In this document: piece after piece, positions 7,621-43,972 of the stretch
Numbering within the stretch: position 1 is the stretch's first letter
Layout of the letters: each line of letters opens with the position of its first letter
Assembly (NCBI GenBank): GCA_036172245.1
Contig: JAYWIR010000070.1
Span: 186,001 to 250,000 of the forward strand
Reading direction: 5' to 3'
DNA length: 64,000 nt
Source: Raillietiella orientalis
Lineage: Eukaryota
Position numbers and translations under genes: made by a program
The notes under the pieces: model-generated
Seen by the model: the letters and a program-made list of their open reading frames with translations, nothing else
What the model was told of the DNA's origin: nothing
The model's database searches: none

Positions 7621-7622
7621 CA

Positions 7623-9644: not shown

Positions 9645-9806
9645 CTTCCCTCCCTCCGCATTTCCCCCATTCCCCTCCGCTGCCCAGGGGTGTCGAGCCG
9701 GTCTGCGTACCGCTTCCCGGCAGGCCACATGAACTATTGGCCGTAGCGGGGCCTAGTACCGCAAATATACTGTGTTTAGAAATAAACGTCCCGGCGTGAC
9801 CGGGTG
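9645..9806 (+). mobile_element. Solo 3' UTR/terminus of the L1/Tx1 family
   Basis: CTGCC..GGTCTGCGTACC..GGCAG stem-loop, then AATAAACGTCCCGGCGTGACCGGGTG. Confidence 0.75.
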
Positions 9807-10860
9807 GGAACTCCCCTGCTTCCAGTGGAAGCGGCGTGCGTTGCAGGGAAAACCCCAATGCAACAGCAGCAGTGCCGACTCTTGCCACTTCAGGGGGAGA
9901 ATCCTGGAACCTTGCAACGGTGGGGGACACTTCAGGTCATCCGTCGGGATGCCGATCAGCTCGCCCCATCTCATCAGTCCACGCGGAAGGGCACTCGGGG
10001 TCGTGGTATCCGCCAGCACTCCCATGGTCCAGCCGCTTAACTTCTCCCTGCCTGCGATCCGACAGGAGACTTGCCACCTCGACATCCGGACGCTGACGAA
10101 AGCCCTCCGTAGGAAGGACAGCGCCATAGCTAAAGGGGTGGTCTCTGTCCACATCCTCCTGGCGGGACACTCCAGAATGGTCCGCAGGGTGCAGAGGGCG
10201 TGGGGGCCGAATCGCAGGCAGTTCCAGCTGTCACTTCTCGGGGCATTCAACTTTGCCCACGTTCCAACAGATTCCTCCAGCCATGTGGAGGAATTGGCGG
10301 GGCTGCATACTATCCAGGCGTTCTCCTTGACCAGTGTTTCCAAGGAGAAGGCCGCATCTTCTGACCTTCCGGCCGCGGCACAGAAGACGCGAGTCCTTGC
10401 GTCCTGGAGACACGGCTGGCGAGGAGGCGGGCCGGAATGCACCAAGGGATGCTCCATAACTTCGCTGCGATGGCCATGGTGCGCCATCGCAGCTGTACTT
10501 CCATCCGCTCCAGCGTCAGGAGACCAAGGCCACCGTCTCGAAGCGGAGCGCACAAGTCTTTCAGAGGCACACGGGGCCTCCCGTTTCCCCACAGGGCGAT
10601 GCGGAGTATGTCCTTAGTCCTCTTCTTCAACTGAAGGGGGGGGGGGACGGGGCACACAAAAAGCAAGGGGCGGATGATGGGAGCCGCGAACGCGTTCCGC
10701 ACCGCGGTCCGTTCCGGCAGGAGGAACTTGCCTTCCAGGAGCGGGATAATCGCCAGCTCTACCTTTTGGAGACGACCTGACCAGGCTTCTGCGAGGAAGA
10801 AGTCCCCCAACGGGACGCCCGTCCGAAGGTGGAGGAGAGGGGCACACCGAGCAGGCTGCA
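9807..10860 (-). mobile_element. L1/Tx1 ORF2 segment (post-RT to zinc-knuckle region), inverted relative to the adjacent 3' end
   Basis: LWGNGRPRVPLKDLCAPLRDGGLGLL and ILPLKWQESALLLLHWGFPCN; homologous to 16.0-16.7 kb and 17.8-18.4 kb. Confidence 0.8.
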
Positions 10861-11055
10861 GGCTGTTCCTTCCCGTGCCCCCCAGAGTTTTTTTTTTATT
10901 ATTCATTTTTATTTTTGTTTGCCCCTTCCCCTCCGCTGCCGAGGCGAACCCCACCTCTGTCGGTTACTCGGCAGGTGCCGAACATTTTCGGATAATGTAG
11001 GGCCAATGGTCCTACAGATGTATGTTTATTATTTTTATAATAAACGTCCTGGAGG
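10861..11055 (+). mobile_element. L1/Tx1 3' UTR/terminus
   Basis: T-rich tract, CTGCCGAG...CTCGGCAG stem, and AATAAACGTCCTGG at 11039. Confidence 0.75.
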
Positions 11056-11699
11056 ATAAACCTAGCAGGCTGCTCCACCGAAGGAATGTCTTCGCCCGGA
11101 CATTCTTCGTAAGTCGCGTCTCCCCCCTAGCTGATTGAGCGGAAGAGAAAGGCCCTTTCTACCCGGTCATGCGCCAGCAGGCAGTGTCCCAGGAATGCCC
11201 CACTGTGGGAAAGTGGAGAAAGAAAACAAAAAAAAAAAACGCATATACTGCTACAATGCGGGAGGCTGAGTCAGGGATGAGAGCGCAGCGCTGAGGCGCT
11301 TCGGTTCCATGATGCCGGCTCCAGAAGACCTTTTTAGAGAGACCGCTCACCTCTCCATGTCCGCAGGTCTCCTCGTTACTGACGACGCTGTGCCACGTAC
11401 GAGCAATGGTGACTGCTGAACCGGAGGAAGAAGGACATGGCCGACCTCCCGGAGAGCCATCCGACAAGCTTCGTCGCCTACATGTGAAAAGCGACAAAAT
11501 GGTCCAGTCTGGAAAGTGGAGCATGAGAGAGCCTTAGAAATCCTGTGAGCAGACTGACCTGAAGCTGGTGAGGGTATTCCCCTCATCCGTTGCGCCCCTG
11601 CCCGCCGCAGGCTCTCTGGAAGTAAATGAAATGCCGAGAGGCCGGCCCATTACATTCCCTACTTATTTATGTACTCTTCCCCCCCACATCTTTCTCCAT

Positions 11700-12700
11700 T
11701 TCTCTCTAGTTCTGGACCCGTCGAGGTTAGTCTCCACTGATGCAGGCCGACTGTAAAACAAAAAAAGCAAAAAGACGGGAAACCAGGGGAAGCGGTGATT
11801 GCTTCGGGCAGTTTCTTCCTTCTAGAAGCGATTTAGAATGCAAGCAATTTTGCTGGTGACTTTGCACAGATGAAAGCGCCTCGCTGCAGTTCTCAGGAGA
11901 GCGGCTGCTGTTCCTGTGTCCAAAAATCCAGCACATGTTCGGGCGGTTAGTCACGCCGCTGGCAACCCACGGAGACCCAAAGGGCATGGCGCTCAGCGAA
12001 GGTCCGCCACGCGCGAAGAAGAACCTCCGCAGGAGGTCTCCGTCGGAGTCCTCCTGGTGCGGAGACCGCCGACCTACGGCAGGTACGGAAACGATTCGAT
12101 CACTCCGCACCTAGAACCTTTTTGTCACGCAACGGCTCCACCGGCAGACGAGGCGGAGGCGCTCGTTAGACCGGAGGCCCCAGCAAACGGAGAGCACCGC
12201 CTCGAGCCTCCATCCCCAAGGGAGCACCAAAGCCACCCTGAGAGGGCGAGAAACCATTGATTCCTCGGTAGAAGCATTCGAGGGTTCTCGCCAATGGAGG
12301 AATCCTCCCGACAACGCGGCGTCCACCAGAAGTCGAGTAGTGCTGTCGCTCCCGCAACGGTTCGTGAGAGTCTCAGACGCCGCCAGAGGGAAACCATCGC
12401 TGCTTGCTCTTAGGGAAGACAGCGCTGCAGCAAGGGGTGTGAGGGTTAGACGGGTTCACTGCATCCAGTGCTGCAGGGCATGTTCCGAGAAAGCTGGCAG
12501 GGGAAGAACTTCCTCTGGGAGCACTTTCCGGACTGCAACTGAGGCATCGAGCACTTCCTGCCGCCACGCATCCCAGTCCATCGGGAGGCAGCGTGAAGCA
12601 AAAGGTCCCGAGGTGCCATTTGGCCGAGCGGCGTCCGGTTGCCAGTCTCCCTCTGGAAGCAATGGAGAAGGACGATTGAAGATCCACGGCTCTCAGCTTT
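11700..12700 (-). mobile_element. Divergent L1/Tx1 ORF2 3' remnant
   Basis: LVLPWGWRLEAVLSVCWGLRSN and SRCGVIESFPYL parallel TLPLKWQE..CWSLPCN and CGERESFPHL of the other copies. A T-rich tract follows. Confidence 0.5.
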
Positions 12701-14099
12701 CCGTCTTTCCTCTGGGTTCCTGCTTGTGTGTTCGGAGCCAGTAACGCCGCTCCGTGAGGCGTAGGGAAGAGGAGAAGAAGATGGTCAATATGAGACTCCG
12801 GCAGCCATCCGGCGTTTCTTCGAGTCCCGCCTCCCTTTTGAGGAATCCCAAGTTCTAGGTCGAAGCGGGATCTTGCTCCTTCTTTCTTCTCCCTACATTC
12901 CTTCTCCTTCCTCGTTCGATCACCGTTTCTTCCTCTCCCTCCTTGCCTATCCCTTCCTCATTCGATCACCGTCTGGTCTCTACTGCCGTCGGATAAGTCC
13001 ACACGGCCCTTGGAGGTGGCCATGCCTTCCGATGGTTGTCAGCAGCATCCTCAGCAAGAAAGCTGCTGTGAACGGTCCGTCCTGAGATCCCGGGTCTTTG
13101 TAGCACTCTGCTTCTCCTCCCGGATTCCTACTCGGGCATCCGGCATCATTGCAGTTTTCTTCCTTTTCCTCCTTCATTAGGAAGTTCATCCTCATCCTCT
13201 TCTGTCGATCCGCTTCGAGGAAGACACGGGTCCTCCCGGGCGCCGAAAAGAGGGATCTTCCCTGCAACAGAGATGCGGGTGCAATGAGGGGGGAAAAGGG
13301 AGGAAGGAACTGGGTCCACCTCGTATTTTCTAAAAGAGGTGTCCCCGTGGAGCCTTCTTTCCGTTCCGCGGCCGTGGTAAATAGGCTGGTTGACCTTCGC
13401 CTCACCGCTGGCTCTGGAATTCTCTCCTCCCAGACGACCACGCTCAGCTTGTTTGTAGGGGAGAGCTTTCGAGGTTTTCCAGTAGGGCGTGGATTCGGAG
13501 AGCGCGAGATGCACGCGAAGGGAGGAGTCACTTGGGACGTTCGTTTCTCAGAGCTCTCGTCTTGCCCCTCCCGCTCAGCATCGGCGTCTCTTCGACGATG
13601 GAGGCGGCGGGCTCGGAGACTGGCAGTTGGCTTTCGCGTTCGTCCATCCAGTGGACCGAACACGGGGAAGCTACACGGCACTCAGGACTCTCCGTCCAAG
13701 GGACGGAGAACGTCGCAAGAGGGGCCGGATCCAAACATCCTGAAGATCTCCAGGCTGAGATCCAGAGGCTGAGATCTAGCAGTGGGAACACGGCATCGGC
13801 TCGCTCGTTGCCTCGGAGTAGGTCCGATATCACTTCTTGGTCCGATTGCATGCAAATGCATCCAGCTGCATCCTCAAACATCCCTTCCCTTTCCACAGCT
13901 TCCTGCAACTCTCGCCCATCCATTCATTTATTTATTGCTGCGTCTTCAGGTTCATGGGAGTTTCCTCTCGCTCATCTCGCGCCCTTCCCCACGGATCCAT
14001 GGTCATTCAGACCTCCTTCTCCCTGTCCCCTTCTCCACGTTAAATCCATCCCATTTCCTCCTCCCTCTTCCATATTTCCCTTGAAAGGCGATCGGGATC

Positions 14100-17000
14100 C
14101 GGACCGCACATCGAGTCACTCCGCTCGCGGGAGAAAATGAGCAGATACGGATCATCCAAGAAATGAAGGCCTTTTGCACTTGGTGTGCGGGGTCACTAGA
14201 GCTGCCCTTCCTCTTGAGGCATCTCTCTGTGTCACGTGCCCTCTCCCACGGGAAACAAGAGGTGGATGCCGGAGTCATCTCTTGGTTTTCCTTCATCCGG
14301 AATGACTGCCAGCTGTCCTGTCGATCCACCGACCTCTCCTTTCGACCCCTCTTCCCACACCTAACGCGCTCCCATAACCTCTACAAGTGCTCCCTTCCCA
14401 TGTCTCCCTTCGGGCGCCTTTTTGGGAGCGCAGCTCCTCGAACAGGGGGAGTCCAGGTGATTGCCGCTGGCTTCATGCCTGAGGGAAACGGCGGATTGCT
14501 CGCAGTGCAGGTCCGGAGCTGGCCGCATGGAGAGTGGTGATCACCGGGTACCCAGACATGTTTTCTCACGGTGAGGCCAGACCGGAGTCACCGTCATCCT
14601 CTCCTTTTCTCTCCCTGAGACTCCCATTGGTCGTTTTCTTGAGCTGCGCACTCAGAAGGGACAGAAACAGAGGAGGCGAACAGAGAGATATCCTGGGAGA
14701 GCGCGGACAGCTTCCCGGTTGTCTGCACAAGTGGGGGCCGAAGGGAAACTCTCCGTGGCTGCGACAGGGTGGGAAGCACTGCAGGCTTCCTCTCCATACC
14801 ATCGCCAAAGAGTCTTTGCCGGCGTTCATGCGGCTCGCGTGCGCAAGACCTCTGTCCCTCCGGAAGCCTATCAGCACGACCGAAGTAAATCCCGTCGACC
14901 GCGCCCACCCCTGACTTGGGATGGGCGATGAAACTCCTCCATTTCTCAGCCCAAGCCTCTGGAAAACCATCCTGGCCCATCACGAGCTCCTCGTTCGAGG
15001 TGGCGCCGGAGATTCCGAGTGTGGCCGTCGCCGGTGGGTGCGATGATCCCGATGGGACGAGCACGGTTTGAGAAGGGCGATTTGCGGTGGTCGCATGGGA
15101 AGCGCCACGAACCTGTGTAGGGAAGGAGGGAGAGGGGGAGGAAAAGTGGGAGTTCCGATCGGGTCCTTCAACCATGTTGGAGCGAGTGCACGCATCGGAG
15201 GGGTTGGCTGGATGGTTCGTGAATGGGGTGGGGGTGGAGTGACGTACTAGGTTTGTTCTTTGAGTTGTGGGGTGCGGAGCATCATGGACGAGGAACATAC
15301 CTGGACTGCTCTGTGAGCCGTGGTGGCCATGTGAATGCACTCAGAAGCGCGAGAAGTTGATTTTCGGAGACGTGTCTGGGCAGGAAGTTGGCAGGGAGAG
15401 GAACTGATGCGATGGAGCATCTTCTTGGCAGGATGGTGTACTGATGGAAGAGGTCGGATATCCCGCTGCGCGCAGGCGTGGTGTGCATTCGAAATAAGAG
15501 GTCCTGGAACAGCGGTCGGTGATGCTTTGGCTTCTGATCGCACCATGCCGAACGAATGCGCCCCAGCTTCCCAGACATCTGGAGCAGGAAGGCACGGCGC
15601 TCCTCAACTGGAAAGCACTCTCCAGCGGAGAGGAAGGGGAAGGGGGAGTCGGGGAAGCAAATCGAGTCCTACCGCGTGCGCCGAACCTCTTGGAACCGTC
15701 AAGGGACGCGCGAGGGTCCGGCGGACCGCGCCGGCGCATCCATGGGAACTGTTCGGGGGACAGCTGGCAGGGGAGGAAATTCATCTGGGAGCGCTTCCTG
15801 ACTCCACTCATCAAAGTTCTTCGGACGAAAGAAGGTCCACCGGCGATCTTCGGAAAGGATAGCAAGATCGCCTCGGTGGGATCCTTCCAGGGCACGCTGG
15901 AGTTATCTCGCATTTGCCACCCGAGGTCGGAAGACCTGGGAAAAGTCCAAAAGACGCACTTTTTCTGGGAGTTTCTCCCGGACAAAGTCCCGAAGAAAGG
16001 GAGAGATGGAGACTTCCGGCACGCGTGACCGCGGACGCATGAGTCGCCGAGGGTGGCACGTGCGCCGCCCATCGGAAGATTCACAAGGCGGCTCGGCGTG
16101 GAGACCTCGCTGCTTCCTTCAGGTCCCGAGCCGTTCCTCCGCTTCTTCTGAAGAGCCGGTGGGGTCTCTGTCCCGAATTTCCTCAGGAAACGACTGTCCA
16201 GGTCTCTCAGGCCATTTTCCAGGTGTTCCGCCTCCGCGAATGGTAATGCCTGGTTGCAGGAAACCATTCGCACATGGGGCGAGGAACCATAAGCGATGCC
16301 CGGAACAGGCGCAGCGATTTTTGTACAGGCTTTATGGGAACTGTTCGCTCTGGGAAGAGTGACGTGAAGAGAAAAGTGCGTGGGCAGGAAACCTTGCCGC
16401 AGCGCTTCCCTCCCTGAGGAAATAAATGGGCAGCAGCCTTCTGGCTAGATCGGAGGTCTCCTTGGAAATCTCCGGCAGGAGAAAAGAACTGTGTGAGTGG
16501 ACGACAGGACAGCTCACGGACGCTGCGACCCCGAGTGCTCCACCTCGAGGACTTCTGCGCTGGGACGAGCTGCTGGATATTCCACAAGAGAATCTACAGT
16601 GGCCGCCAGTGCTCTTGGATACTCGCACTCTCCCCCTTAAAGTGGCAGGAGTCGGCGTTGATGATGCTGTGTTGGAGTCTCCCGTGCAACACCCGCTGGC
16701 ATCACTGGACACCGGTGTGTATGAGTCCGAACTGTGGCAGGTGCACGGAACGTGAATCTCTCTCTCATCTGATAGTTGGCTGTCCTGCCTCCGGCCCCTG
16801 TGGGAACGTTTCGGGACGACCCTTGGGTTACCGGTTAAGGCAACCCCAGAGACGTTTACCGCCTTCTCTTCATGCGGGACTCCCTGCAGTTAGCCACAGC
16901 CCTGACAGCACTTTGCTGCATCCGAGGGATTGTGGCGGTCTGGAGTGAAGCCGACGATGAAGATGCCAACGAAAGGGACGTCATCCCGTGTGCTGTTCGC

Positions 17001-17305
17001 TTCCTGCAAAGAGCTACCGGATGGCCCCAGCTGGGTGGAATAAAGAAGGAACTCGAAGGCATCCTGCAAAGAATGGACCCTCCTCTTAGTGATCCCTCCC
17101 AGCCCTCCAAACTCTTGTTTTGTTTTATTGGTTTTATTTTTCTTTTTGTTTTTCCCCCATCCCTTTCCACTGCCGAGAGTCACGCTGGTCTGCGTCCCGG
17201 AGTGCCGGCAGGTCCTGTTAAATGTTGGCCGTTAGTGGGGCCTTGCACCACGTTTTGTTATGACTTCTGGAAGAGTTTGAATAAACGTCCCGGCGTATCC
17301 GGGTG
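14100..17305 (+). mobile_element. Longest decayed L1/Tx1-clade LINE copy (APE-like, RT-like, zinc knuckle, 3' UTR)
   Basis: Ordered remnants: GNGGLLAVQV (APE-like), GSWQGEEL (RT QG motif), GRKFIWERFLTPL, TLPLKWQES, CGRCTERESLSHLIVGC and C-terminal WPQLGGIKKELEGILQRM. Ends AATAAACGTCCCGGCGTATCCGGGTG. Confidence 0.75.
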
Positions 17306-17819
17306 GCATCACCGGGCGCGTCTGGAATTGTCGTTCGTGCCCGGCGCGTCGGGCTCTGCTTGTGTGTCCAGGTTCGAGATGCGCGCAAATGGCGGCGAGA
17401 AGCCTTCGGCAAACCGTTCGCGTCGTGCTGCGCCTTCGAGCTGCTTCGGCTGCTACTGTCGTTCGCACGGACGCCACACCTCCCGATAGCGACGCTGCGT
17501 TTACTCGGAGTCGGCAGTTTCTCTCGCGTTGATTAGTCTGTGAGGTCCTCTCCGCTTCCGCCTACCCATTGGCTTTCTGTCCTTCTGCTCCTTGCCTGCT
17601 CTTGAACCCTTGGCCCTGACAAGCGTCGCAGGACTCCTTCTCTGCCGCCACTTGTGTTTCTGCCTTCTTGTCCCCCCGCTGCTCCCCGAGAACCGCATGC
17701 GGCTTAGGCTGCCTCAGGCGATCCTGGCCGCGCGTGCCCCGGCGCGATCTTTTCCGCGATCCGCACGTCTTGGCGGTTTGCCTTTCCTGAGTGGACTCCA
17801 GGCGCATGAGATAGGTGCG

Positions 17820-18944
17820 CTCGACCTCACAACTTCGGCGGAATGGTTGCCTTGGCGAAGGAGAACGCCTGGATCTCCTGCCTCTCCGCGAACTGCACTA
17901 CCTGGCTTCAGGAGTCGGTTCGCATGTGGGGGAAGATCCACGACAAGAGCAGAAAAGATTTCTCCTGTCTGCAACGTGGCAGGTACGCTCGTCAGCTTCT
18001 ACAGGAGGTCCTGGAGAACCCAAGAAAGAGCCTGACCTGGAGGGCCCCGTTCACCCCCCTTGCCTCAGTGCTGCCCTCCTTCAGGAAAACAAGGGACAGT
18101 GCACCACAGGCAAGGTGGAAAGTGACCTGCACCTTAGCAGGAAAAAGAAACTTCTTGGAGGGTAGTCGGCACAGGAGCCCACGGACGAGGCACCCCGAGT
18201 GTCTCGCCCACAAGACTCACACGCTGAGGCGATCCTCTAGGAATTCCTCGGAAGGAACTGAAGTGGCCCCAGCATGCTGGAACAGTTGCACCCTCCCTCT
18301 CACGTGGCAGGGGTCGGCGCTGCTGGTCTTGCATCGGAGATTCCCGTGCGAAGTTGGTCTTCACCACTAGAAAGAAAAGTATGGGTTAAGGGAGATCCTC
18401 CAGCAGCTGCTCCTCGACGGTGCTACCCCCCGAGCCCTTTGGGATCCTCTTGCAGCGACCCTTCGGTGGGACAACCCCAAGTCACTTTGAAACGCCTCTT
18501 CACACGTGCCGCACTGCCGACAGCCGCGTCCCTCGCTGCTCTCTGCTGTCTTGGTGGGTTCGGAATGGCCTGGAATGACTCAAGAAGAGGTCAGAATGGA
18601 GGAAACACTACCCACTTGCTGGGAGTCTTCTAGAGGAATGCCACGAGATGGCCCCACCCATCTAGACGATATTCAGATCGAATTTGCCGGCATCCTGCAA
18701 AGTCTGCAGAGAACGCCCAGAAGCGAGCTTGCCAGAAAAACTTTTAAACCCTTTTTTTTCCTTTATTTTGCTTTATTTTTTCTTTTTGCTCGTCCTCTCG
18801 CCCCTTATGCCGGAAAGGACCTCGCCGGTCCGCTTACCAGCAACTCGGCAGCAATTCCGTATTTCTTAGGGCGTGGCAGGACGGTGAGTCGTACCACAAA
18901 TACTTTAAATACCTTCATAATAAATACCCTGGAAAATCTGGGTG
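17820..18944 (+). mobile_element. 5'-truncated L1/Tx1 copy
   Basis: LAKENAWISC, TLPLTWQGS and IQIEFAGILQSL; T-rich UTR, stem-loop and AATAAATACCCTGGAAAATCTGGGTG. Confidence 0.8.
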
Positions 18945-19189
18945 AACAAATCACGTGCAGGAGTGCTTGTTCACTTGCCTTTTGGGGTTCGATGCAGAGA
19001 CGCGGGGAGATGGAGGGGAAAAAAAGAAAGATAAATGAAAAAAAAAATAAAGTTCGAAGAGTGTTTGTCTGGGGGCAGGGTAAGGGATCACAGTACGTCC
19101 CGCGACGTCCTGCTCACTCTTTGGAGGATGCTGGCATGTTGCTTTCCAGGTGGGGCTATCTGCACGTGGTAGGGTTAAGGGTCCTACTA

Positions 19190-20297
19190 AACTGAGCGCG
19201 CATTGGCGGCCGCGTATTTGCGGTCTCCTCGCATGGCACCACCAAACGTCGCGGGTTCGAATCCCGCCCGGAGAAAGATCGACACCGAGAAATGGGTGCG
19301 TCGTGGGTTTCGAGTTCCCTCCGCAAGATGACGCTGATTGGTCTATTCGGATGCGGCACTGGTGGGAGCTGGAATGCCTCCGTTAACTGGCCGGGATTGT
19401 AAGTGGATCCTACAGGGTCCTTCAAGGAATGAAGGATCCGTTCCCTCCGGTTGGGAAAATGGAGCCGTTCCCCTCTTGGGAGACAACCCTCTTTTGGGTT
19501 CTATGGCAAAATGGAAGTGATTGCCGAAACTTCTAAGTGGCTGCCTTCTTTGAACCTTAGTGCAAGTACGAATCTTACAGAGGATCAGCTATTATTGGAA
19601 AAGCTATTAGGAAACGTCAATATTGTTTTCACTCTCGATATTCCAACTTTTAAAAGAGGAATCAATGCTTTTGGTATCAGCAAGGCAAAAAGGGATGCAA
19701 AAAAGTCTACTTATGATTGTTATGAAATGGTGAAAAATATAGAAAAAGAGGTTGTAAACGCTTGGAATAACGTTCTGTGCTTGATAACCCCTTCATGGGG
19801 TCGCCTCTCCAGAGTGTCAGAAACTCTCTGCTCCCTTAGGGGAGCGTTCCTAGGAAAAATTTGGAAGCTTCCTGTCGCGTTTCTCTTCAGAGGAGGAAAG
19901 AAGGAGCGGTTCCCTTGCGAGCTCCCTCCGGAGAAGAAATTTCTGATAGTGGATCCTTTCCGGGTTCCCTTCGAAGCGGATCCCTCTGGGGACCCTGCGG
20001 AGAGAATGAGGAAGGAGATTCCCTTCGTGGTTCCCCTTAGGAGACAAGTAGGGTGGAGGTGATCTCCATTCCGGGGATCCCTCCCCAGGCGTGAGAGCAA
20101 CGGACTTCGAGCCCTTTCTGGATTCATAGGGCGGTTCCCTCTCGGGATACCCCTCAACTTGAAGAGTGAACACTCACCGTAGGCTGGCGCCACAATTGGA
20201 AAGAGCTTCGTGAGCCCCTAGGCAAAATGATCTTTCGTACTTGGCGAACCAAAATTGCGAGTTTATTTCTAGAATAAACGCTCCGGCGTACCTGGGT
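19190..20297 (+). mobile_element. Most complete copy of a long tRNA-derived SINE, interrupted by a bacterial insert at about 19505-19780
   Basis: T-arm GCGGGTTCGAATCCCGC (B box) near 19255 and a second B-box-like GGTTTCGAGTTCCC near 19307. The body is shared with five other loci. Ends AATAAACGCTCCGGCGTACCTGGGT. Confidence 0.75.
19505..19780 (+). pseudogene. tolC: Fragment of a TolC-family outer-membrane protein gene, Wolbachia-like
   Basis: AT-rich, stop-free stretch KMEVIAETSKWLPSLNLSAS...VFTLDIPTFKRGINAFGISKAK...VVNAWNNVL. It fits the OEP repeat pattern (LPxLxLxA...LxIPxFxxG...VxxAW). Confidence 0.7.
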
Positions 20298-20349
20298 AAT
20301 AAACCCTCACCACGACAAGGGTAGTCAATGGAGGTGACCAACCCTCCTT

Positions 20350-20900: not shown

Positions 20901-20949
20901 AGAGGCAGAATTCACGAAACTGGTTGTCCTAAATTCCTCAGGGAACGGG

Positions 20950-21479: not shown

Positions 21480-22240
21480 GAAGATTGCAGGACCGCAGTG
21501 CAAGCAGACCTGCATGGATCAGGAGCCACTTGTCGAGCTGCTAGAACGGCTAGGCTTTTCAGCTGGCCTTCCGGATTACTTACGCCCTCGAAGGCGCAAA
21601 ATGAAAATTCCGGTCTCTTCCGACGGCCTTCCCATAAAAGGCGTCAAGGTCAAGAGGGGAATTCGACAGGGAGGCAGACCCTCTGAACTGGTGCCAAACG
21701 CGTAGCGGAATAGCGGAGTGTACTGGGCTGGAGCAGAATGAAAGTCCATCGCAGAGCACTTCAGTTGCTGCCCCTAAGGATCTCCTGAAACGCGTCCTCG
21801 TGTCTGGAGGTCCTCTTCCTGGTACGAGCGAGAATGACTGCCAAAACTGAGGACAGATGTGTCCGTAATCTCAGGGAACTGCTGGAAGTCTCTGTCATCT
21901 GCATTCATTCGCGGCAAAGATGACCCAGTCCGAGGGAGACCCATGAGGGGTGAACGTACCGCATTCCCTGTTTCTCCTCCCTCTCCTCCTTTGCATGCCT
22001 CCCTCCCCGAGGACCTGCAACAGGCCCTAGGGGATCATGTTTATCACCATGAGCCTCATTTTCTCCCATTCCTGCATTTGTTTATTAGCCCTCCCTGCTG
22101 TCCCCCTCGCTCTCATTCCTCCCTAGTCCTGCCGCAAGGGAATAGAATTCCCTTCGTTTCGGGCCGGCTCATGTAGTACCGTGCATGTCGTGAAAACTTC
22201 ATTCATCCATTTTCAATAAATGGCCCGGCAATCCAGGATG
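21480..22240 (+). mobile_element. RT-core fragment plus decayed 3' end of an L1/Tx1 copy
   Basis: LLERLGFS...VKVKRGIRQGGRPSEL (RT motif). Terminus AATAAATGGCCCGGCAATCCAGGATG at 22215. Confidence 0.65.
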
Positions 22241-25859: not shown

Positions 25860-27150
25860 AGCTCAAGAGGAAGGAATTTTCCTTCGTACGCTCGGGAAGG
25901 AACCCCGAAGGGAGCCATCTCTTCCTAATTATTTCCGGAGGGACCTTCCCTCATTTCCTCCGAAGTGACACAAAGTTCTCTGAAGGGCGCTCCCTGGGTT
26001 GAGCAACGCGCTTCTTGATACTCTGAAAAGGCAAACTCTCGAGGGGGATATCAATGAGCTCCATGGGTAAGAGATGGAAGATTTCCTTCGAAAGGAGGGA
26101 CGGCTCCATTTTCGCAACCGGAGGGGAACTCCGGAAGCAACCGACTCCTTGATTCCCGGATGGAACCCGAAGGGTCAACTTTCAATCCCGGCCAGTCCAC
26201 GAGGGCATCCAGTTTCCAGCTTCCACCAGTGCCGCACCTTCCCCTTAAAGTGGCAGGAGTCGGCGTTGATACTGCTGCATTGAGACATCCCGTGCAACGC
26301 CCATCGCCATCGGTGGACACGGATTTGTGTGAACCTGAACTGTGCAAGGTGTGGGGAGCGGGAATCCTTCCCGCACCTCCTAGTGCACTGTTTCCCTGTG
26401 CACCCTTTGGGGACGCTTTGCCGCGACCCTTGGAACCCCTGGCGGCAACCTCGGAGACGTTTCAAAACGCCTCTTCCTACCCGACGTCCCCTCGCCGGCC
26501 GCATTCCCAGCAGCACTTTGCTGCCCATGCGGCGGGATCGTGACTGCGTGGAGCAACGCCAAAGACCAGAACGACAGGGACGCCGTCAACTTTGCCGTCC
26601 TCTTCATGAGGATAACGTGTCAAGATGGCCCCATCTGGGAGTCTTGAAACAGAAACTCGCTGGCATCCTTACAAGGATGAGGAGGACGCCTTCCAGCACA
26701 CAGTAATCCCTTTTCGAACCGCCTCCCCCTCCACTCATTTCTTGACTGCATTTTTTTGTTTTTTTTGTTTTTCTTTTTGTTTGTTTCCCCTTCGTCTGTG
26801 CTGCTGAGGAGAACCCTGCTGGCCTGCGTACCAGATTGCTCACGGGCAGTATCGCCGCCGCTGACCTTCAGGGAGGCGCGATTATTGCTAGTTGAAAACC
26901 AGATCTCGGCAGGTTCCTTTTCGCATCCATAAGTAACGTGGCAGGATCAAACTTCCTGCCACAGACATGTAGGTTTATAAATAAACGCCCCGGTGCGACC
27001 GGCTGTCAATCAGCGCCGCATCATCTTGCGGCGGGCACTCGAAACCCACAACGCACCTCCGTTCTCGGCGTCCACCCTTCCCAGAGCGGGATTCGAACCC
27101 GCAACGTTTGGTGCCACGCGAAGAGGCCGCAGCCACGCTGCAGCCAACGC
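25860..27150 (-). mobile_element. SINE copy (head 27150-27003, body 26235-25860) split by an L1/Tx1 insertion
   Basis: Head and body join seamlessly when compared with 19190-19500. Confidence 0.7.
26236..27002 (+). mobile_element. 5'-truncated L1/Tx1 copy nested in a SINE
   Basis: FPLKWQES, CARCGERESFPHLLVHC and WPHLGVLKQKLAGILTRM; ends AATAAACGCCCCGGTGCGACCGG. Confidence 0.85.
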
Positions 27151-27400
27151 AGGAGGTCACTTTTCAGGTGCATTCGCAGCTTCTGAAAATCCACCAAACT
27201 TGGGAAAAAGGTATTTAGCGCATCCATCTGCTGCCAGGATGAGAGATCACAATCGATGATCAAGCTAGCCTTGTTCAGGGTGTCTTCCTCCGACGGATAG
27301 GCATTGAAAAATTCTGAACGGTTTCCCAAGATGTTCATAGGCTCCTGACAAGATTCAGGACTCAGGTTCAGAATTTTCAACCTTCATTCAGGACGGTTTA
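27151..27400 (-). mobile_element. Utopia/NeSL-type RT C-terminal fragment, cut at the inverted-repeat boundary
   Basis: IIDCDLSSWQQMDALNTFFPSLVDFQKLR ~ IxxSxLxPWQKxDAxxxFxxPxLxFxLR. Confidence 0.55.
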
Positions 27401-31100: not shown

Positions 31101-32809
31101 CAGTCATCCGCGTCGCCTGTGCCTTGGTCTCTTAGAAACCTCAGCCCGCGTTGGCTGCAGCGTGGCACCAAACGTTGCGGGTTCGAATCCCGCTCTGGGA
31201 AGGGTGGACGCCGAGAACGGAGGTGCGTTGTGGGTTTCGAGTGCCCGCCGCAAGATGATGCGGCGCTGATTGACAGCCGGTCGCACCGGGGCGTTTATTT
31301 ATAAACCTACATGTCTGTGGCAGGAAGTTTGATCCTGCCACGTTACTTATGGATGCGAAAAGGAACCTGCCGAGATCTGGTTTTCAACTAGCAATAATCG
31401 CGCCTCCCTGAAGGTCAGCGGCGGCGATACTGCCCGTGAGCAATCTGGTACGCAGGCCAGCAGGGTTCTCCTCAGCAGCACAGACGAAGGGGAAACAAAC
31501 AAAAAGAAAAACAAAAAAAACAAAAAAATGCAGTCAAGAAATGAGTGGAGGGGGAGGCGGTTCGAAAAGGGATTACTGTGTGCTGGAAGGCGTCCTCCTC
31601 ATCCTTGTAAGGATGCCAGCGAGTTTCTGTTTCAAGACTCCCAGATGGGGCCATCTTGACACGTTATCCTCATGAAGAGGACGGCAAAGTTGACGGCGTC
31701 CCTGTCGTTCTGGTCTTTGGCGTTGCTCCACGCAGTCACGATCCCGCCGCATGGGCAGCAAAGTGCTGCTGGGAATGCGGCCGGCGAGGGGACGTCGGGT
31801 AGGAAGAGGCGTTTTGAAACGTCTCCGAGGTTGCCGCCAGGGGTTCCAAGGGTCGCGGCAAAGCGTCCCCAAAGGGTGCACAGGGAAACAGTGCACTAGG
31901 AGGTGCGGGAAGGATTCCCGCTCCCCACACCTTGCACAGTTCAGGTTCACACAAATCCGTGTCCACCGATGGCGATGGGCGTTGCACGGGATGTCTCAAT
32001 GCAGCAGTATCAACGCCGACTCCTGCCACTTTAAGGGGAAGGTGCGGCACTGGTGGAAGCTGGAAACTGGATGCCCTCGTGGACTGGCCGGGATTGAAAG
32101 TTGACCCTTCGGGTTCCATCCGGGAATCAAGGAGTCGGTTCCCTTCAGGGTTCCCTTTGGGAATTTTTAGTGTCGGCATCGTTTCAGCTCTTCCATTCTT
32201 CGACGATAGCAGCAACCATTTCCCATCACAGATTCTGGTAAAGTATGATGGCACCTCCAAAGAATGGCCAGCACCAAAGAAGGGCACACGGGATCCGTAT
32301 GCTCTTGCACGCCACGCTGAAGCTACAGATGCCACGCCTCTCTGGAAACCTGTCCCCACTTTGCTGCTGTTTTGTTATCGGCAAATACTTGCCTCCGACG
32401 TCGAGCCAGCGGATTCCGCATGCTGCAGGCGCCTGCTGGCCAGCACGCACAGGTTGGCATCCGGGGTCCCAAACTTAGCACGCTCCCTGCAGCAAAATTT
32501 CCGCTGTGGTCCAAAACCGCGGTCTTGGACCATAGGAATCCCATCCTATACGTCTCGCGAAAGTGCTGAAGACAACGCATTCATTTTATTCTCCAATGGT
32601 AAATATCTCTTCTTAACCCGTACACCTGCTACAGATCAAGCATGGTGAACTCCAGCATGCAAATCGGGTCACGGGTTGCACGATTCAGTGGGAATAACAT
32701 CGCTCAGTAAGCCCAGTATAACGGTCGACGGAGTCATCTTCAGCAGCATTATGAGGAGAAAATTTACCTCCGGCGCGAGAGCACTGCAGAAAGAACGCGC
32801 ATGACAATC

Positions 32810-33520: not shown

Positions 33521-33534
33521 GTCAATCTCTAGTC

Positions 33535-37700: not shown

Positions 37701-39667
37701 GAATGGACCGGTTTCTCCGATGAAGGGTCCTCCTCCTCGCACCACCAACAATTTCTCGTACGCCCTCGGAAAACGAGAACCGAAGAATGTGCCTCTGCGT
37801 GCATCGCTATGCGATGGGTATTCCGCCAATGGGTATACAAAGTGAAGAGACAGCAGGCGTCGCTTGGCGGAAAGAGGATTCCGTCTGGCACTTCCCTACG
37901 TTGCGGAATTCGATCCTCGTTTGTTCGGCAGCTGCCAGGACGCTGGCTGTCGGCGCTCCTTCCTTGCCGCGTAGCGCATTCCCCAATTGTACGTGTGGAT
38001 GATGCTTGGTTTCTCGCAAGACGGAAGCGTCGAGAGAGTCCTGACAGTGGGAATGCAAGCAGGGAAAGCCTGGTGCCTTGGGACTTGCTTCAAATTTCCC
38101 CGATTTCCGCAACACCAGCAAAGAGCTCAATTCCTGCAAGAACGGATGCTAGCATTCGTTCTTCCACCCTCGCGCGGTCCTCAAAGAATGTGTGCATGTG
38201 CTACGATATCGCCACAGCTTGCGAAAGACGACACGGATCTTTGCTGTAGGCAAAGGAGCTGTGCGTGCAAACAAAGGCGTGGGAAATGATATGGTCTCAT
38301 CTACATTTTCCGCAATGTCGAGGAGTACTGCAAGTCTGCGTTTTGCCCACGGTCCCGTTTCGGCCTGCTGCCACGTTACGTATTTTCCGTGTGACGAATA
38401 CGGGAAACCATTCTGCGTAGGAACATGATTCTCCCAGAGTTCTTTCTGTCTCGCGGCACTTCTTCGCTGTCAGCCCTTGTGGTCACGGTTTCGAGTCTTC
38501 TGAGTTCTCAGAATGATTGGAGAACAAAGCTAGCTGATAGCAGTGCGCGCAACAGAAGAGCAAGCGCGTGCTGCGTATTTCCGCGTACGCCAGCAAAGAC
38601 CCTCCGCCGTTTCGGCTTTTCGAAAGAGCAGGCGGAAAGCCATCTGACTGCGTAATCAAGGATTCGGTTTTGCGCTGTTCGGCATCCTGAAACATTTATT
38701 CTCAAGCCCGAGTGGCACGAATATGTGTTTGTTAGCGTGTGTGTGCGTTTTTTTCTTGTTTCTTCTGAGAAGCGGTTTCATGGGAGTTTCGATCGTGCGA
38801 CCTCCACCAACATCCTAGGGTAGACCAGGAACGAGCCCGTGGCAAGACCTGACAGTAGAAATGCAAAAGAAAAAGGCGGAAGAACGTCCGCACAGCCACG
38901 CTGTCACTTTGCCCAGAAGTCCAGCGCGTGGAACCGTCTGTCCTGGCAATGGGTGTCCCGCGGCTCCTCTGCATGTGGTGCTGCGGCTGCAGCTGCCGAG
39001 GTGCGCGATCTCATCTCGCCACTCTGAGGGGCGCGCGCGTTTCTCGTTTCGTGGAAAGAGGAGGATGCCTGCCTACGTAGCTGTGGGATATCCGGATGGG
39101 GGATGCAGGCGGCTGCGTCATCTGCTCTCGTCGCTTTCTCGATTCCTCCATCCACGTGTTTGACTGCTGAAGCCGGCAACGTTCGACTTCTTTTCGGTGG
39201 CTGCTCCTGGTTTTTCTTCCTGATGGATGTCAACCTCGTAGGCATATGTATGCTGGTGATGATGAATCCCCTTTGCCTTTTGAGGACGAAATTCGTAGAC
39301 GTCTGTGGTCCTTGCCGTCTCTTCGCTGGAGACTTTATCCGTCATCTCTCAATCGCTGGGAGTCAGGTGGGTGTGGGAATGCCCATCGGGTTCACGGGCA
39401 GACGGAACCCCAGGAGCGCCACGAAGGCCAAGGTGCTCTTCGAAACGTCCGCGGTTGTCTCTGCGAGGCAGTTTCAGGAAATGACATGAATGTGATGATT
39501 GGTGTTGATCAGATCTACGTATATGAGTGCAGGTGCTGCATCCCATCTTTGGTTCTAGACGCTGAGGAGGTTTTCCGCATGTCGCTCCACGTTCTCGCCT
39601 CAGCCGCGAACGGACGCTTCCTAACGATAACATCACGCTCTTGATAATTTGAGATCTGCGAGGCGAG
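34758..39667. repeat. Inverted duplication: 34758-35508 and 38917-39667, about 3.4-kb spacer
   Basis: Identical ORF peptides on opposite strands; only two substitutions noticed, both near the ends. Confidence 0.97.
35895..36370 (+). mobile_element. SINE copy (head plus shortened body)
   Basis: GTTGCGGGTTCGAATCCCGCCCTGGGAAG..CGCAAGATGAC, then family body. Confidence 0.7.
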
Positions 39668-40570
39668 TTCGAGTTCTTTTCAGTGGCTGCTGCTGGTGGT
39701 GTTTCTTTTCTCAGAAGAGCAATTTCTTCAGAAGATTTCTTTTTATGAATCGAAATTGAGCGAGTGTGATTTCGAAGGCTTGGATGCCTCTAGTAGTTCT
39801 GGACCATGTGCACTCGTACTCAAGCCAAAGAATGTAGATCGCTCTAGAAAGTGCTGGAATGGGACCACGTCCTCTGCCACCTCACACGGCTCGTGATGGT
39901 TCGGCTTGTGTTGCGACACTGTAGGATTAGTCTTCCTTTGTCTTTGCTGCATTTTGTCAGGAGTGCCTTGGGATGCAGCTATCCAGGTGAATGGGGGCGG
40001 CAGAGATTCTGCGCGTTTGTTTCGGAATGACATCTAATGCAACATAAGATGTTACTGATGTCATAGTTTTTGCTGTTCTATATTGTGTAGCATCCACCTT
40101 GCTCCCGCATCTGCGAGACTTTAAGGTTTCTTCATAGAGAACACACTCTGTTGCATTTCCGTGTTCCATCTTGCTCATCGATAGGGTCGGAGAGATGGGG
40201 CGGAGTACGGTGTTCTCACGTTCGGCTTGCTGTGGCTTTCCGATGGCAGGAAGCCCATCTTGCTCACATGTTCAAGGATTGGGACCTCTTCATCGTATTC
40301 ATCCCGTTTCGGTCTCCTTCAAAAGGTGGAACGCGTGGAATCTTTCCACCTTCCAGCTTGGAAACTGCATAGCTGCTAGTGGGAATATCGGGCGATCATT
40401 TCCACGTAGCCTTTCGACGATTGCAGACGAGGCGAATCTCCTGCAGACGTTTGGATCACTTTTTATCGCTTTGACATGTATCCACAATTTGAGAAAAATA
40501 AAGCAAAGCTGAAATGAATCACAAGCCTCATATAGCACCCCATGTTATTGTATAGAGAGGTTTCAGGGTT

Positions 40571-40637
40571 TCAAAATAGTTTAGTATACTGGTCACCAGA
40601 TAGGTGGTGTATCAGCTATTAAGCTGGTAAGAACAGA
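40571..40637 (-). ncRNA. U2 snRNA fragment (stem IIa, stem IIb, Sm-like site)
   Basis: TCTGTTCTTACCAGCTTAATAGCTGATAC-ACCACCTATCTGGTGAC-CAGTATACTAAACT-ATTTTGA, colinear with the middle of U2. Confidence 0.85.
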
Positions 40638-42560
40638 TTTTACTTCATAATTGCTGCAACTCATCTTGCAAATTAACTCGCGTGGTCCTACTCACTTCTT
40701 TCTATTTCTTCCATGGACTATTCCACTGAGGGTTGTTCGTAAGGAGACTGTTTTTAGCTGAGTTTCTAAGTAGTCCCTTGGATTGCCCGCGTCTTCTGAA
40801 GGGTGGTTTAGCCGCGGGGGACAATACACATCTCTACTACATCGAATGGAGGAGGCTATCATCAGTTTCCTCATTTTGTCCGCATATCTCCTAGTCGTAG
40901 TACTCCATCATTGGGGAAATCCACATTCCTACGCTATCAGTGATAGCACCATTCATGACATTATGCATATTCCCTTCCAGTTCGATATGTTCGTCGGAGT
41001 TCTTCCTTTGATCGTTACACCGGAATCCCTATCGAGAAATTCAGTAAATCATTGCTATTCCCATATTCGCATGTTCTAGAAAAGAACGGCGCTTGCACAG
41101 GTAGGATGGAAAAATCAAGATGCACTGGTGCAACTTCACGGCATTCCTTCGAAGCAAATCCAACCTTTCTGCTTCTCTTCTTCTTAGTGAACAAACGAAC
41201 TTCTATTAGGGGTGTTTATCTTTCGAACTGTTTCTATGGAAAGTGTTAGAATGGCGATAATTCTCCACTAAATTACTTTTCTTTCCGGAAGGTTTGTTGG
41301 CACTTGTCCGTCATGCAATGCAGCAAAGTTGGAATGGGCGGACAGCCCATTCATCGGGTTGGCATGCAAGGAATGCGTGTGCAGGCACTCTGACCTAGCC
41401 TCGAGATACGGTCATCAAAGTAAGGGTTATTTCTGGGAAAGGCCACAGCAAGGAAAACTTCAAAAACTCAAAGGACATGGCGAAAACACTTGAGCAGAAG
41501 TGGAGATTCCAGTTTTCAACAAATTCTCCGACCTCGCCTGCAGTCCCGAATCAAAGGGTCCTGCTTGAGAACACCTCAAGTGTGCAATTTCTGGTTTTCA
41601 GCTCAGAAGGCAACTCCAAGATGGAGGCACTGCTTTGGGTTGACTTTCTTTTTATTGTATGCATGGTAATGAGATTTCGGTCGCCAGCCTTGAGTGCAAA
41701 GTTGTGGTGCATGTGTGTTGCACTCGTCCATCTCCTGCAGAACGAACAAGACAAACTCTTCTCTACCATTCTGTCCTGCTGCCTTAGGATTTGCTGTTCT
41801 TTCCTTTAATTATCATTTTTAGAACTAAAGTGGATGTCCTGCCAATGATATTCACCCGAAAAACACTCCTGCCCGACCAATTCTCCGGTAATCGTTAAAT
41901 ACCGTTCTACCCGGGAAAATGGATCAACCCAGGGTTCCATTTGTAAATAAACAGAAGTATCCATGAGTGTGCTCAGCCACCGAAGAATTCTCCTTGTAAT
42001 GTTCCACATTTTTGTTTCTGTTTTCGTTTTCGAAGGTCCTCACAATATAAAAGTGTGTGTATGAATGCTGGTTATAAGCGATGTGCCAGGACGTCATGAA
42101 TGATACACGCAGTATAGGCGGCAGTGACAGCGTTGGTGACATAATCATAGCTCGACGCCGAAATCTTTTTAGGAATCATTTGAGGCAGAACTTCCGCTCA
42201 TTACGAAGACGAAGCCAGCCTGAGAAAGGTTCAGGAGCAACAGGTTGACAATTAAGGGGGCTTATAGCGCCCCCCTCTATATGGAGCGTTTTCTTCTGCA
42301 ACGTAAGCAGATTCGAACCATCCAACTCGCCTCTTCGATCATTTCTCCTAGTGCATTGGGGATGGGAAGGAAGCGATAAGAATTCCAGATACCTGCCGTG
42401 CAAGCGGATCTTGCAACCGACATCAAAACAGGCGTTTCCCGCGAGCGGAAGAGGCTGAGGAACTCAGCCGGGAAACTCGGGAAACCGTTAGACAAGGATG
42501 GCAGGGAATCACAAATGCATCCGCTCCTGGAGAACAAATGCACCACAAACTCTCGTAGAA
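40638..42560 (-). mobile_element. Decayed Utopia-type retrotransposon ending at the U2 fragment
   Basis: C-terminal MRKLMIASSIRCSRDVY; upstream RT-like remnants (VPQPLPLAG; KKTLHI). Confidence 0.7.
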
Positions 42561-42594
42561 GTTTTCCTAATTCTAGCAGATGCCAGATGATACC

Positions 42595-43050
42595 TCTCCA
42601 GAGAGACACGTGCCGCTCCCTTCGGGAAGCGCCCTTCTGAGAAATCTCGGAAACCTCCCTTCGGAGCTCTCTTTGTAGGAGTAAACAGGAGCGGTTCCCT
42701 TCGGAGAAGAAAAAAACGAAGCGGTCCCTTTCGAGGGTCCCTCCGGAGAGAATAAGGAAGGAGATTCCCTTTGGAGACAACCAGCGTGGAGGGGACGAAG
42801 GGGCGTTAGAGGAATGGACTCCTTTCTCTGGAGTGCTTCCTGGATTCACCAGGTGGTCCCCTTTAGGAGTACACCTATCTTGAAGAATTACATGCACCCT
42901 CGGGTGGCGTGGAACAGTGTTAAGGAGCTGCGTGAGTGCCAGACGCGCGGCGGTTCTTGAGGTACTTGGCGACCCCCCCAAAAAAAAACCTAAAAAAAAA
43001 AAAAAATGGAAAGAAAACAGCGAAACAGAAGAACCAAAAGGAATTCCATC
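42595..43050 (+). mobile_element. SINE body and A-rich tail
   Basis: Matches the reverse complement of 6965-7620. Confidence 0.75.
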
Positions 43051-43089
43051 ATCCTATTCCCCCCCCCCCCCCTTGTCCTAGTGCTGCTT

Positions 43090-43972
43090 CTTTTAAGGGA
43101 CGCAAGGGACAGCGTAATCCCGGCAAGGTGGGAATTGACTTGCTGCATAGCAGCAAAGAAGAAAGTATTGGGGACATGGATAACTCGGAAACTGACGGAC
43201 ACTGCGACCTCGAGTGCCCCACCCCACGGACCAGTACGCTGGGGAGAGCTGCTCAGCATCCCTCCGGAGGAGGTGATGCGTGCCCCAGCGTGCTGGAATA
43301 GTGCAACCCTCCCCATCATCAGTGGCAGGAGTTGGCGTTGCTGGTGTTGCATGGGGGAATCCTATGCAAAGAGCGCCTTCATCGCTGGACAAGGGGAACA
43401 TAGGTGCTCAGTGCGAGACAGGTGCGGGAAGAAGGCCCTCCCGCACCTGCTGTTGGACCGTGCTGCTCTCTGACCTCTTTGGGATTGCCTCGTGACGACC
43501 CTAGAAATCCCTGCGGCCGTCCCCAGAAATATTTTGAAGGTGCATGCCGCACTGCCGTGACCCGCGTCCCTAGCATCTCTGCTGTGCTCGCGGAATCATG
43601 ACGGCTTGAAACGCCAGGAGAAGAGGTCGAAATGGCAGGAACGCCATCCATTGGGAGAGTATATTCCTGAGGTCCGCCTCGAGATGGTCCCACCTGGGCA
43701 TTATCAGGGAGGAACTTGCCATCATCCTGAACAGGCTGCCGGAGACGATTGGTAGCAAACCGTGATACCCCCCGTGTATAAATTCCCCTCCCCTGTTTTG
43801 TTTGTTTATTTGTTTGCGTTTTGTATTCCCTTCCCCCACGCTGCCGAAGAGGACATCGCCGGTCTGAGTACGGTCCTCGGCAGGTTCACTGCTCATGGTA
43901 CAACCAACCGTTCTACCCCAAAAATGTATTTTAATTACTTAATTGTAATAAATGCCCCGGAATAACCGGGTG
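43090..43972 (+). mobile_element. 5'-truncated L1/Tx1 copy
   Basis: VRWGELLSIPPEE, CGKKALPHLLL and WSHLGIIREELAIILNRL; stem CTGCCGA(A)GAGGAC..GTCCTCGGCAG; AATAAATGCCCCGGAATAACCGGGTG. Confidence 0.8.

Follow-up and report, generated by a model that had tools for sequence, protein, structure and literature searches.

Retrotransposition of the 'relaxed', poly(A)-dependent kind is classically exemplified by L1-type long interspersed nuclear elements (LINEs), and structured 3′ ends that lack a tail are a feature typical of other clades. Among the latter, elements of the UnaL2/ZfL2 type end in short tandem repeats past the stem-loop. In these 'stringent' LINEs of the L2 clade (UnaL2 of the eel, ZfL2-1 and ZfL2-2 of the zebrafish) the 3′-terminal stem-loop must be recognised by the element's own open reading frame 2 (ORF2) protein for reverse transcription to take place, as stated in the excerpts cited here (PMC4176376, PMC3747384). 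Within the L1 clade, stringent lineages have been argued for only among some plants and algae, by Ohshima, namely the maize and sorghum LINE1-1_ZM group ('monocot 1a') and L1-1_CR of Chlamydomonas; the part of that paper drawn upon describes short interspersed nuclear element (SINE) partners with a common tail, compensatory stem changes and end repeats of A or T (PMC3747384). Tx1-group LINEs (Tx1L, Keno, Kibi, Koshi and Tx1-Mar) are characterised in a further excerpt as animal, L1-related elements of the apurinic/apyrimidinic endonuclease (APE) type that frequently use other repeats or transposons as insertion sites (PMC4494074). For human L1, a position-specific stem-loop near the 3′ end was proposed by Grechishnikova and Poptsova in 2016 as a possible recognition feature, according to the section cited (PMC5135761). 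Here, a stretch of 64,000 nt from Raillietiella orientalis (assembly GCA_036172245.1, contig JAYWIR010000070.1, positions 186,001 to 250,000 of the forward strand), in the following called the window, was analysed with regard to a set of L1-like LINE copies that end in AATAAA and a GC hairpin of the form CCCGG-N5-CCGGG. On balance, and with moderate confidence, this motif is interpreted as a 3′-terminal module of an old and diversified L1-like lineage that would serve both 'stringent' recognition by the reverse transcriptase (RT) and formation of the RNA 3′ end.

The lineage in the window is like UnaL2 and ZfL2, as far as these are covered by the excerpts, in its conserved 3′-terminal stem-loop, its fixed 3′ end, its variable 5′ truncation and the lack of poly(A), and recognition by the RT would be a further, inferred parallel. 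It is unlike these L2-clade elements in its L1-like RT, in the lack of a terminal repeat and in the position of AAUAAA immediately before the hairpin. It is comparable to LINE1-1_ZM and L1-1_CR, L1-clade elements whose last ~45-80 nt are, in the portion of the source used, far better conserved than the body and form a stem-loop (PMC3747384); in contrast to them, neither a SINE partner nor compensatory change in the GC stem nor a terminal repeat was found for the tails of the window, and the host is an animal. Similar to the Tx1 group as portrayed in the excerpt, the copies sit in other repeats and in another LINE, but they have no common target in the window. The proposal for human L1, in the section cited, likewise takes a stem-loop near the 3′ end as a candidate recognition feature, while human L1 needs and carries a poly(A) tail and the window lineage has none. 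Thus, the window tail is set apart from the known stringent tails by AAUAAA being fused to the hairpin, by the lack of terminal repeats or A's and of a SINE partner among the sequences searched, and by its animal host. An exact-word search of open-access text returned no description of a tail-less L1/Tx1 terminus made of AATAAA and a hairpin, which is weak evidence. A first-pass annotation of the window had considered a possibly undescribed 3′-end mechanism; this is overstated, since recognition of a structured tail by the RT is what stringent LINEs generally rely on, and such tails have been argued for L1-clade lineages of plants and an alga in the excerpt cited (PMC3747384). A tail-less terminus of AAUAAA and hairpin in an animal L1-like element would bear on whether stringent recognition is ancestral in the L1 clade and would make the tail of ~26-45 nt a compact candidate RT-recognition tag, without introducing a new principle.

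The shared 3′ terminus

The strict pattern AATAAA-N0-12-CCNGG-N3-8-CCGGG was found three times in the window, each time on the plus strand (9781, 17280 and 43947), against 0.02 sites expected, and none of 100 shuffles reached three. When up to three mismatches to the consensus AATAAACGCCCCGG-N5-CCGGGTG were allowed, six sites were obtained (9781, 17280, 20273, 26980, 31274-31299(-) and 43947) and none in 100 shuffles. Five of these sites are independent, because the one on the minus strand is an inverted duplicate of that at 26980 (blastn, 26124-27119 vs 32155-31160, 99.5% identity). The good independent tails are therefore those of copies A (9781), C (17280), E (20273), G (26980) and H (43947). 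The tails of copies D (18919) and F (22215) are looser, with more than three mismatches to the consensus, and that of copy B (11039) is aberrant. Every position listed in the first-pass annotation was checked and confirmed; its designation of the 11039 copy as partial is borne out by a tail that breaks off after CCTGG or carries an expanded loop, and its formula YRYCCYGG-N5-CCGGGTG fits three of the seven complete tails exactly, the remaining ones being off at one to four positions.

Alignment of the eight 3′ ends gave a common order. Past the ORF2 stop, a T-rich stretch leads to stem-loop 1 (CUGCCGAG...CUCGGCAG, aligned as CTGCCGAG...CTCGGCAG and enclosing an inner hairpin, CCGG...CCGG) and then to stem-loop 2; AATAAA lies in the A/T-rich stretch that comes next, and the GC hairpin and TG follow. 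The element ends 20-21 nt past the hexamer, where the GC hairpin CCCGG-N5-CCGGG is followed by UG and 0-3 further bases. In metazoans, poly(A) cleavage usually takes place 10-30 nt past the hexamer, and the hexamer of these copies plausibly also defines the RNA 3′ end. Pairwise identity over copies A, C, D, E, F, G and H was 100% for AATAAA, 89% for the 5′ arm, 76% for the 3′ arm and 86% for TG, as compared with 33% for the loop, 49% for the spacer, 38% for the upstream untranslated region (UTR) and 41% for the 10 nt past TG (37% over A, C, D, G and H). Over copies A, C, D, G and H the values were 100% for AATAAA, 92% and 84% for the arms, 100% for TG, 34% for the loop and 44% for the upstream UTR. 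Overall, the arms are conserved at 76-92% vs 30-44% for the UTR, so that the terminal stem-loop is kept across diverged copies and the earlier description of kept arms and varying loops is confirmed; CGT is common to three of the loops (CGTGA, CGTAT and CGTAC). Since the constrained positions are ~92% identical and the bodies only 65-70%, most of the body divergence would predate insertion, which suggests that several diverged lineages have retained one and the same tail.

The position of the hairpin relative to the element end could be determined at copy G (26237..27006, plus strand), a 770-nt 5′-truncated insertion with both junctions defined. It comprises, in this order, the CCHC knuckle, the end of ORF2, the T-rich stretch, stem-loop 1 (interrupted by the 5′ half of a U4 small nuclear RNA (snRNA) at 26832-26907), stem-loop 2 and the tail (26980-27006), which ends ...CCGGCTGT. 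Comparison with the reverse complement of 19150-19520 showed that a tRNA-like repeat, the T-repeat, is split by the insertion, one half forming the left flank (up to 26236) and the other the right flank (from 27007); the left flank is not LINE sequence, and its assignment to the LINE was rejected on comparison. The T-repeat is uninterrupted at 19188-19491 and in two further copies, and all three of these uninterrupted copies present the empty site, which lies at 19330..19352 (minus strand) and contains neither the hairpin nor AATAAA. The insert 26237-27006 ends ...AATAAACGCCCCGGTGCGACCGGCTGT, with the hairpin inside the insert, followed by one T and no A's; insertion went along with an 11-nt target deletion, without a target-site duplication (TSD) and without any A after the tail. 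It is thus supported that the hairpin ends the element and belongs to the insert. The hairpin as a part of the T-repeat was rejected, because the empty site is without it and the flanks of the other copies differ.

The U4 piece in stem-loop 1 of copy G (~nt 4-72, with the 5′ stem-loop and the AUUAUUGCUAGUUGAAAAC stretch; 26832-26907(+), duplicated at 31372-31447(-)) is bordered by ACCAGA on both sides and scored 47.3 bits with the Rfam U4 model (gathering score 46). It looks like a capture by template switch or microhomology. The other 3′ UTRs gave no U4 match at E up to 0.1, so that the piece is confined to copy G.

Relationship and 5′ truncation of the copies

The relationship to known LINE proteins was established through piece X (9807..10819, minus strand), an antisense ORF2 fragment that reaches from the post-RT region to just before the CCHC knuckle and adjoins the 3′ end of copy A. 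Its ORF (P0002) aligns with P0003 at 65% identity, the alignment covering 69% of the query (E 2.5e-51). P0003 is a public protein of 619 aa, a fragment without the N-terminus, that carries an RVT_1 domain (E 4.7e-24) and has human LINE-1 ORF2p as its best solved relative in the PDB (E 7e-40), R2 proteins following at 7e-17 or worse. The RT is thus of the LINE type and closest to L1; the RT core itself is absent from the 5′-truncated copies that bear the tail. In tblastn searches with P0003, aa 394-540 matched piece X at 10819-10373 (65% identity) and aa 558-584 at 10334-10254, aa 558-611 matched copy D at 17852-17998, and aa 235-295 matched an RT fragment upstream of copy F at 21511-21693 (52% identity, E 1.9e-10). 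In the 20 best longer relatives of P0003 (~30% identity), PF03372 (APE) and PF00078 (RT) were found in 19 of 20, and PF13966 (zf-RVT) as well in 16 of 20; the APE endonuclease was seen only in these distant full-length relatives. An L1-like profile was built from 27 full-length relatives of P0003. Its positions 767-868 match piece X at 10481-10792 (independent E-value 5.6e-8) and its positions 1004-1056 weakly match the knuckle region of copy G at 26278-26439 (independent E-value 0.0077), and its N-terminal part is unmatched in the window. Copies C and G have retained an intact zinc knuckle of the CCHC type at the ORF2 C-terminus (zf-RVT region; C-x2-C-x7-H-x4-C), which hhalign aligned with the CCHC columns that are invariant among 20 full-length relatives (E 2.6e-4, probability 43%). 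When metagenomes were scanned with P0003, the RTs obtained were all distant (22-35% identity, with one 28-residue match at 61%) and none had the tail motif, and a scan of viral contigs returned no locus.

Copy A (9661..9806, plus strand) is a 146-nt 5′-truncated piece of 3′ UTR with the exact motif in its tail (9781-9806, AATAAACGTCCCGGCGTGACCGGGTG); by blastn, 9661-9807 matches 17151-17306. It ends 0-3 nt past GTG, and piece X begins at ~9807-9810. Copy B (10860..11063, plus strand) is a 3′ UTR piece in which the aberrant tail reads AATAAACGTCCTGG and then AGGATAAACCTAGCAGGCTG; its positions 10889-10951 match 26751-26816 in blastn, and its AAUAAAC helix is strong (fold z -4.4). Piece X (9807-10819(-)) and copy B (10860-11063(+)) stand head to head, 5′ end to 5′ end. 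This arrangement resembles an L1 5′-inversion by twin priming. Copy C (16392..17305, plus strand) consists of the ORF2 C-terminus with the intact knuckle and the 3′ UTR, has its tail at 17280-17305 and may, from weak matches to P0003, extend back to ~15762. Copy D (17845..18944, plus strand) contains an ORF2 C-terminal part and the 3′ UTR with a degenerate tail (18919-18944; CCTGG/CTGGG, two G.U pairs), and its segment 18054-18658 matches 43067-43694 of copy H in blastn.

Copy E (20254..20298, plus strand) is a tail-only fragment of ~45 nt (tail 20273-20298) within the A-rich tract of a repeat termed fam2. Directly 3′ of its tail, at 20299-20325(+), lies a second tail-like string, ATAAACCCTCACCACGACAAGGGTAG, which is hexamer-like and continues into a CCCT...AGGG stem. 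Copy B likewise has a doubled ATAAAC, and both may be tandem tail fragments. Copy F (22191..22240, plus strand) has a degenerate tail at 22215-22240, with two unpaired positions in the stem, and the RT fragment upstream. Copy G′ (31273..32042, minus strand) is the insertion of copy G within the inverted segmental duplication named above and does not represent an independent event. Copy H (43030..43972, plus strand) comprises an ORF2 C-terminal part and the 3′ UTR with an exact tail (43947-43972), and lies at the edge of a GC-rich island, adjoining AT-rich host DNA. The copy lengths are ~45, 146, 770, ~940 and at least 1100 nt, with one common 3′ terminus, and a fixed 3′ end combined with lengths from ~45 nt to at least 1.1 kb is the 5′-truncation pattern of LINEs. 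Because of the RT/ORF2 homology, the knuckle and these lengths with a single common 3′ end, the interpretation of the copies as 5′-truncated 3′ pieces of an L1-like non-long-terminal-repeat retrotransposon lineage is supported at the sequence level. The earlier assignment to an L1-like family agrees with this, as an L1-like LINE lineage with RT and zinc knuckle, and presumably of the APE type, is supported by piece X and P0003, the profile and the knuckle.

Proposed role of the tail and alternative explanations

According to the interpretation preferred here, AAUAAA would direct cleavage ~20 nt downstream, just 3′ of the hairpin. The ORF2 protein of the element would recognise the terminal hairpin module, as that of 'stringent' LINEs does, and target-primed reverse transcription would begin at the templated 3′ end instead of within a poly(A) tail. 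With a start at the templated end, new copies would lack an A-tail, would all end at one fixed 3′ position and would be truncated to varying extents from the 5′ side. The folding of the RNA, the role of AAUAAA in cleavage and the recognition of the tail by the RT are steps that we infer. Of the possibilities raised in the first-pass annotation, a structured signal for RT priming or 3′ processing is the best reading, in view of the conservation of the tail, its position at the element end and the tail-less copy G. A more far-reaching version is tentative and, in our view, rather doubtful: AAUAAA, sequestered in a helix stacked on the GC hairpin, might form a bipartite RNA tag that fixes the cleavage site and loads the RT exactly at the cleaved end. 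This might amount to an animal case of L1-type target-primed reverse transcription that does without poly(A), with the tag common to a guild of diverged, mutually nesting L1-like families that differ in target choice.

With respect to RNA structure, 32 of 35 cells of the GC stem (five pairs in seven copies) are paired, and four changes preserve pairing, all of them as G.U on the sense strand. In seven of eight copies AAUAAAC can form a helix with a GUUUAUU-like run further upstream, the loop lengths varying between copies. The summed length of this helix over the eight copies is 49 bp vs 35.3 +/- 3.2 in shuffles, and 0 of 1000 shuffles reached 49; position 7 of the helix co-varies with its partner, being C-G in five copies and U-A in two. 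RNAalifold, applied to six of the eight 3′ ends (E and F were left out), predicted three of these helices with 17 pairs, of which four show two-sided change. Three of the four are located in stem-loop 2, and the fourth was rejected as an artefact of the aberrant copy B. Partner changes are restricted to the AAUAAAC helix and stem-loop 2. Overall, the structure evidence for the tail is mixed.

Several results weigh against the proposed role. The GC stem has no two-sided compensatory change in any of its five pairs over seven copies, shuffled partners pair equally (91.9% vs 91.4%), and, of the four G.U changes, three are C-to-T transitions in a CpG context such as neutral decay produces as well. 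The fold energy beats that of shuffles in two of eight tails (z -4.4 and -2.2), the other six lying between -0.53 and +0.42. A generic 'AATAAA then any hairpin of at least 5 bp' is hardly more frequent than background (7 of 46 sites within 1-45 kb vs 10%); the non-random part is the shared sequence and its register, not hairpin potential as such. Within the window, a conserved palindromic sequence explains the GC stem as well as structure does. Every copy is old, and no SINE partner with this tail was found, there being no further tail motif beyond the LINE copies in this one window. In addition, neither RT nor APE (PF03372) nor zf-RVT was returned by Pfam for the window ORFs submitted, which comprised 150 of the 196 ORFs that span 70 aa or more on the plus strand and 147 of 203 ORFs of a second list (all of the latter except 32 on the minus strand to the left of 7,099 and 24 short ones to the right of ~48.8 kb), and Pfam gave nothing for three read-through frames of 10400-13399(-) or for three ORF pieces. 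The ORF of copy D (17810-18367), the best-preserved upstream ORF, had no true homologue in a HMMER search of 1.84 billion representatives, its sole match being a leucine-rich repeat protein that was judged spurious, and the ORF of copy C had no match in a word-indexed search. Because these other domain and homologue searches were empty, the L1 assignment rests on piece X with P0003, one 61-aa RT fragment and the knuckle.

The results on the GC stem bear most directly on the best-placed of the alternatives, which is nevertheless unlikely, namely that CCCGG...CCGGG and TG are read as DNA or as linear RNA, e.g. by an endonuclease, the RT or a host factor, the hairpin being incidental. The lack of two-sided compensatory change and fold energies that are mostly no better than those of shuffles are what a sequence motif would give, and the near-invariance of the arms means that the structural and the sequence reading are not discriminated by them. 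Against this, each departure that leaves the stem paired (four cells) is a G.U on the sense strand, and a change in the 3′ arm of copy G leaves an alternative 5-bp stem, CCGGU-GCG-ACCGG. The partner changes in the AAUAAAC helix and stem-loop 2 further imply that the UTR as a whole behaves like structured RNA.

It is also unlikely, and ranked next, that the terminus is an ordinary relaxed L1-type end, in which AATAAA and the hairpin serve as a poly(A) site only, the RT starts in poly(A) and the short A-tails of old copies were lost or mutated. The hexamer is indeed invariant and 20-21 nt before the end, the copies are all old, and after TG or TA the next base is an A in four of seven copies (D AACAAA, E ATAAAC, F AGAAGG and H AGAATC). 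However, copy G, the sole junction with an empty site, has no A between ...GGCTGT and the target, copy A has at most three non-A bases after GTG (GGA) before the next element, and no copy has three or more A's directly past the hairpin, save for the interrupted AACAAA of D. The conservation of the arms at 76-92% vs 30-44% for the UTR would also be left unexplained. Thus, of the poly(A) or A-rich tail and TSD typical of L1 proper, copy G has none. The earlier statement that no A-tail or TSD is visible holds at copy G, the sole copy at which both flanks and an empty site allow a proper check.

An origin of the hairpin from a multicopy target, co-mobilised by a site-specific element of the Tx1 type as the first-pass annotation had considered, is highly improbable and is rejected here. 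The insertion of copy A in antisense orientation in the ORF2 of another LINE would suit such an element, but the empty site of copy G was without the hairpin in three of three uninterrupted T-repeat copies, and an alignment of the 3′ flanks revealed no common target. The resemblance of the right flank of G to the T-repeat was equalled in 0 of 300 shuffles, while for the flanks of A, B, C, D, E, F and H 48-287 of 300 shuffles scored as high, and the 10 nt after the tails are only ~41% identical over the seven copies other than B. Insertion at a single specific target, a trait of Tx1, is thus not seen, as only the flank of G matches the T-repeat; with n=8 old copies this is weak evidence, and no site specificity is visible within this window. 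A search for the tail sequence outside the elements, also suggested earlier, did not point to an unrelated source either: the exact 26-mer had four matches in 596 Gb of prokaryote genomes, where ~2 are expected at equal base frequencies, and 0 in viral contigs, and none of the matches had LINE homology. That the motif is not of LINE origin and belongs, as a 3′-terminal hairpin, to a DNA transposon of the rolling-circle (Helitron-like) or another type has a negligible probability, since, notwithstanding the GC hairpin that Helitron 3′ ends carry near the terminus and the absence of RT from the Pfam results for the window ORFs submitted, RT/ORF2-homologous sequence lies upstream in the same orientation, a fixed 3′ end is combined with variable 5′ truncation, and no CTRR terminus is present.

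Other repeats and genes of the window

The T-repeat, in one copy of which G is inserted, consists of two tandem tRNA-like T-arm segments, GCGGGTTCGAATCCCGC and GTGGGTTTCGAGTNCCCGC, and is located at 19188-19491 (+), 27007-27164 (-), 31115-31272 (+), 33366-33513 (-) and 35861-36015 (+). ARAGORN annotated a tRNA-Phe at 35861-35952 within one of the copies. The T-repeat is usually followed by the fam2 repeat and may be the head of a composite SINE-like element. Copies of fam2 are found at 7166-7644 (+), 32835-33223 (+), 19737-20262 (-) and 42587-43028 (-), the strands being relative to the first copy. They have an internal A-rich tract and a common end ~60 nt past it (...GGAATTCCATCRTC), show no Pfam match and are adjoined by the LINE copies E and H. 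A poly(A) tail as the end of fam2 was rejected, because homology runs ~60 nt past the A-rich tract, which is therefore internal.

Two young inverted segmental duplications lie in the GC-rich island, one between 34758-35508 and 39667-38917 (99.7%) and the other being that of copy G (26124-27119 vs 32155-31160, 99.5%). The 'Utopia/U2' junctions mentioned in the first-pass annotation could not be substantiated, the only U2 signal being a sub-threshold match at 40472-40676(-) (33.2 bits, gathering score 46, E 0.0064) with no RT adjoining among the ORFs scanned; this is probably a decayed U2 copy that lay behind the remark. The open frame of 491 aa at 36774-38246(+) in GC-rich DNA had no Pfam match and only an uninformative feature-score lead of 0.75 in a protein atlas, and is probably a chance ORF.

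In a stretch of 44% GC between repeats, an ORF piece at 8993-9271(+) matched the Pfam ribulose-phosphate 3-epimerase family above the cut-off (E 3.3e-6), and a second one at 9361-9636(-) matched the 3-dehydroquinate synthase C-terminal domain below the cut-off (E 2.8e-5). The composition of the window breaks sharply between the repeat island at 1-45000 (50-62% GC) and the host DNA at 45000-64000 (33-43% GC), and the latter contains a Furry/MOR2-PAG1 gene on the minus strand, with Pfam matches from 53652 to 63249.

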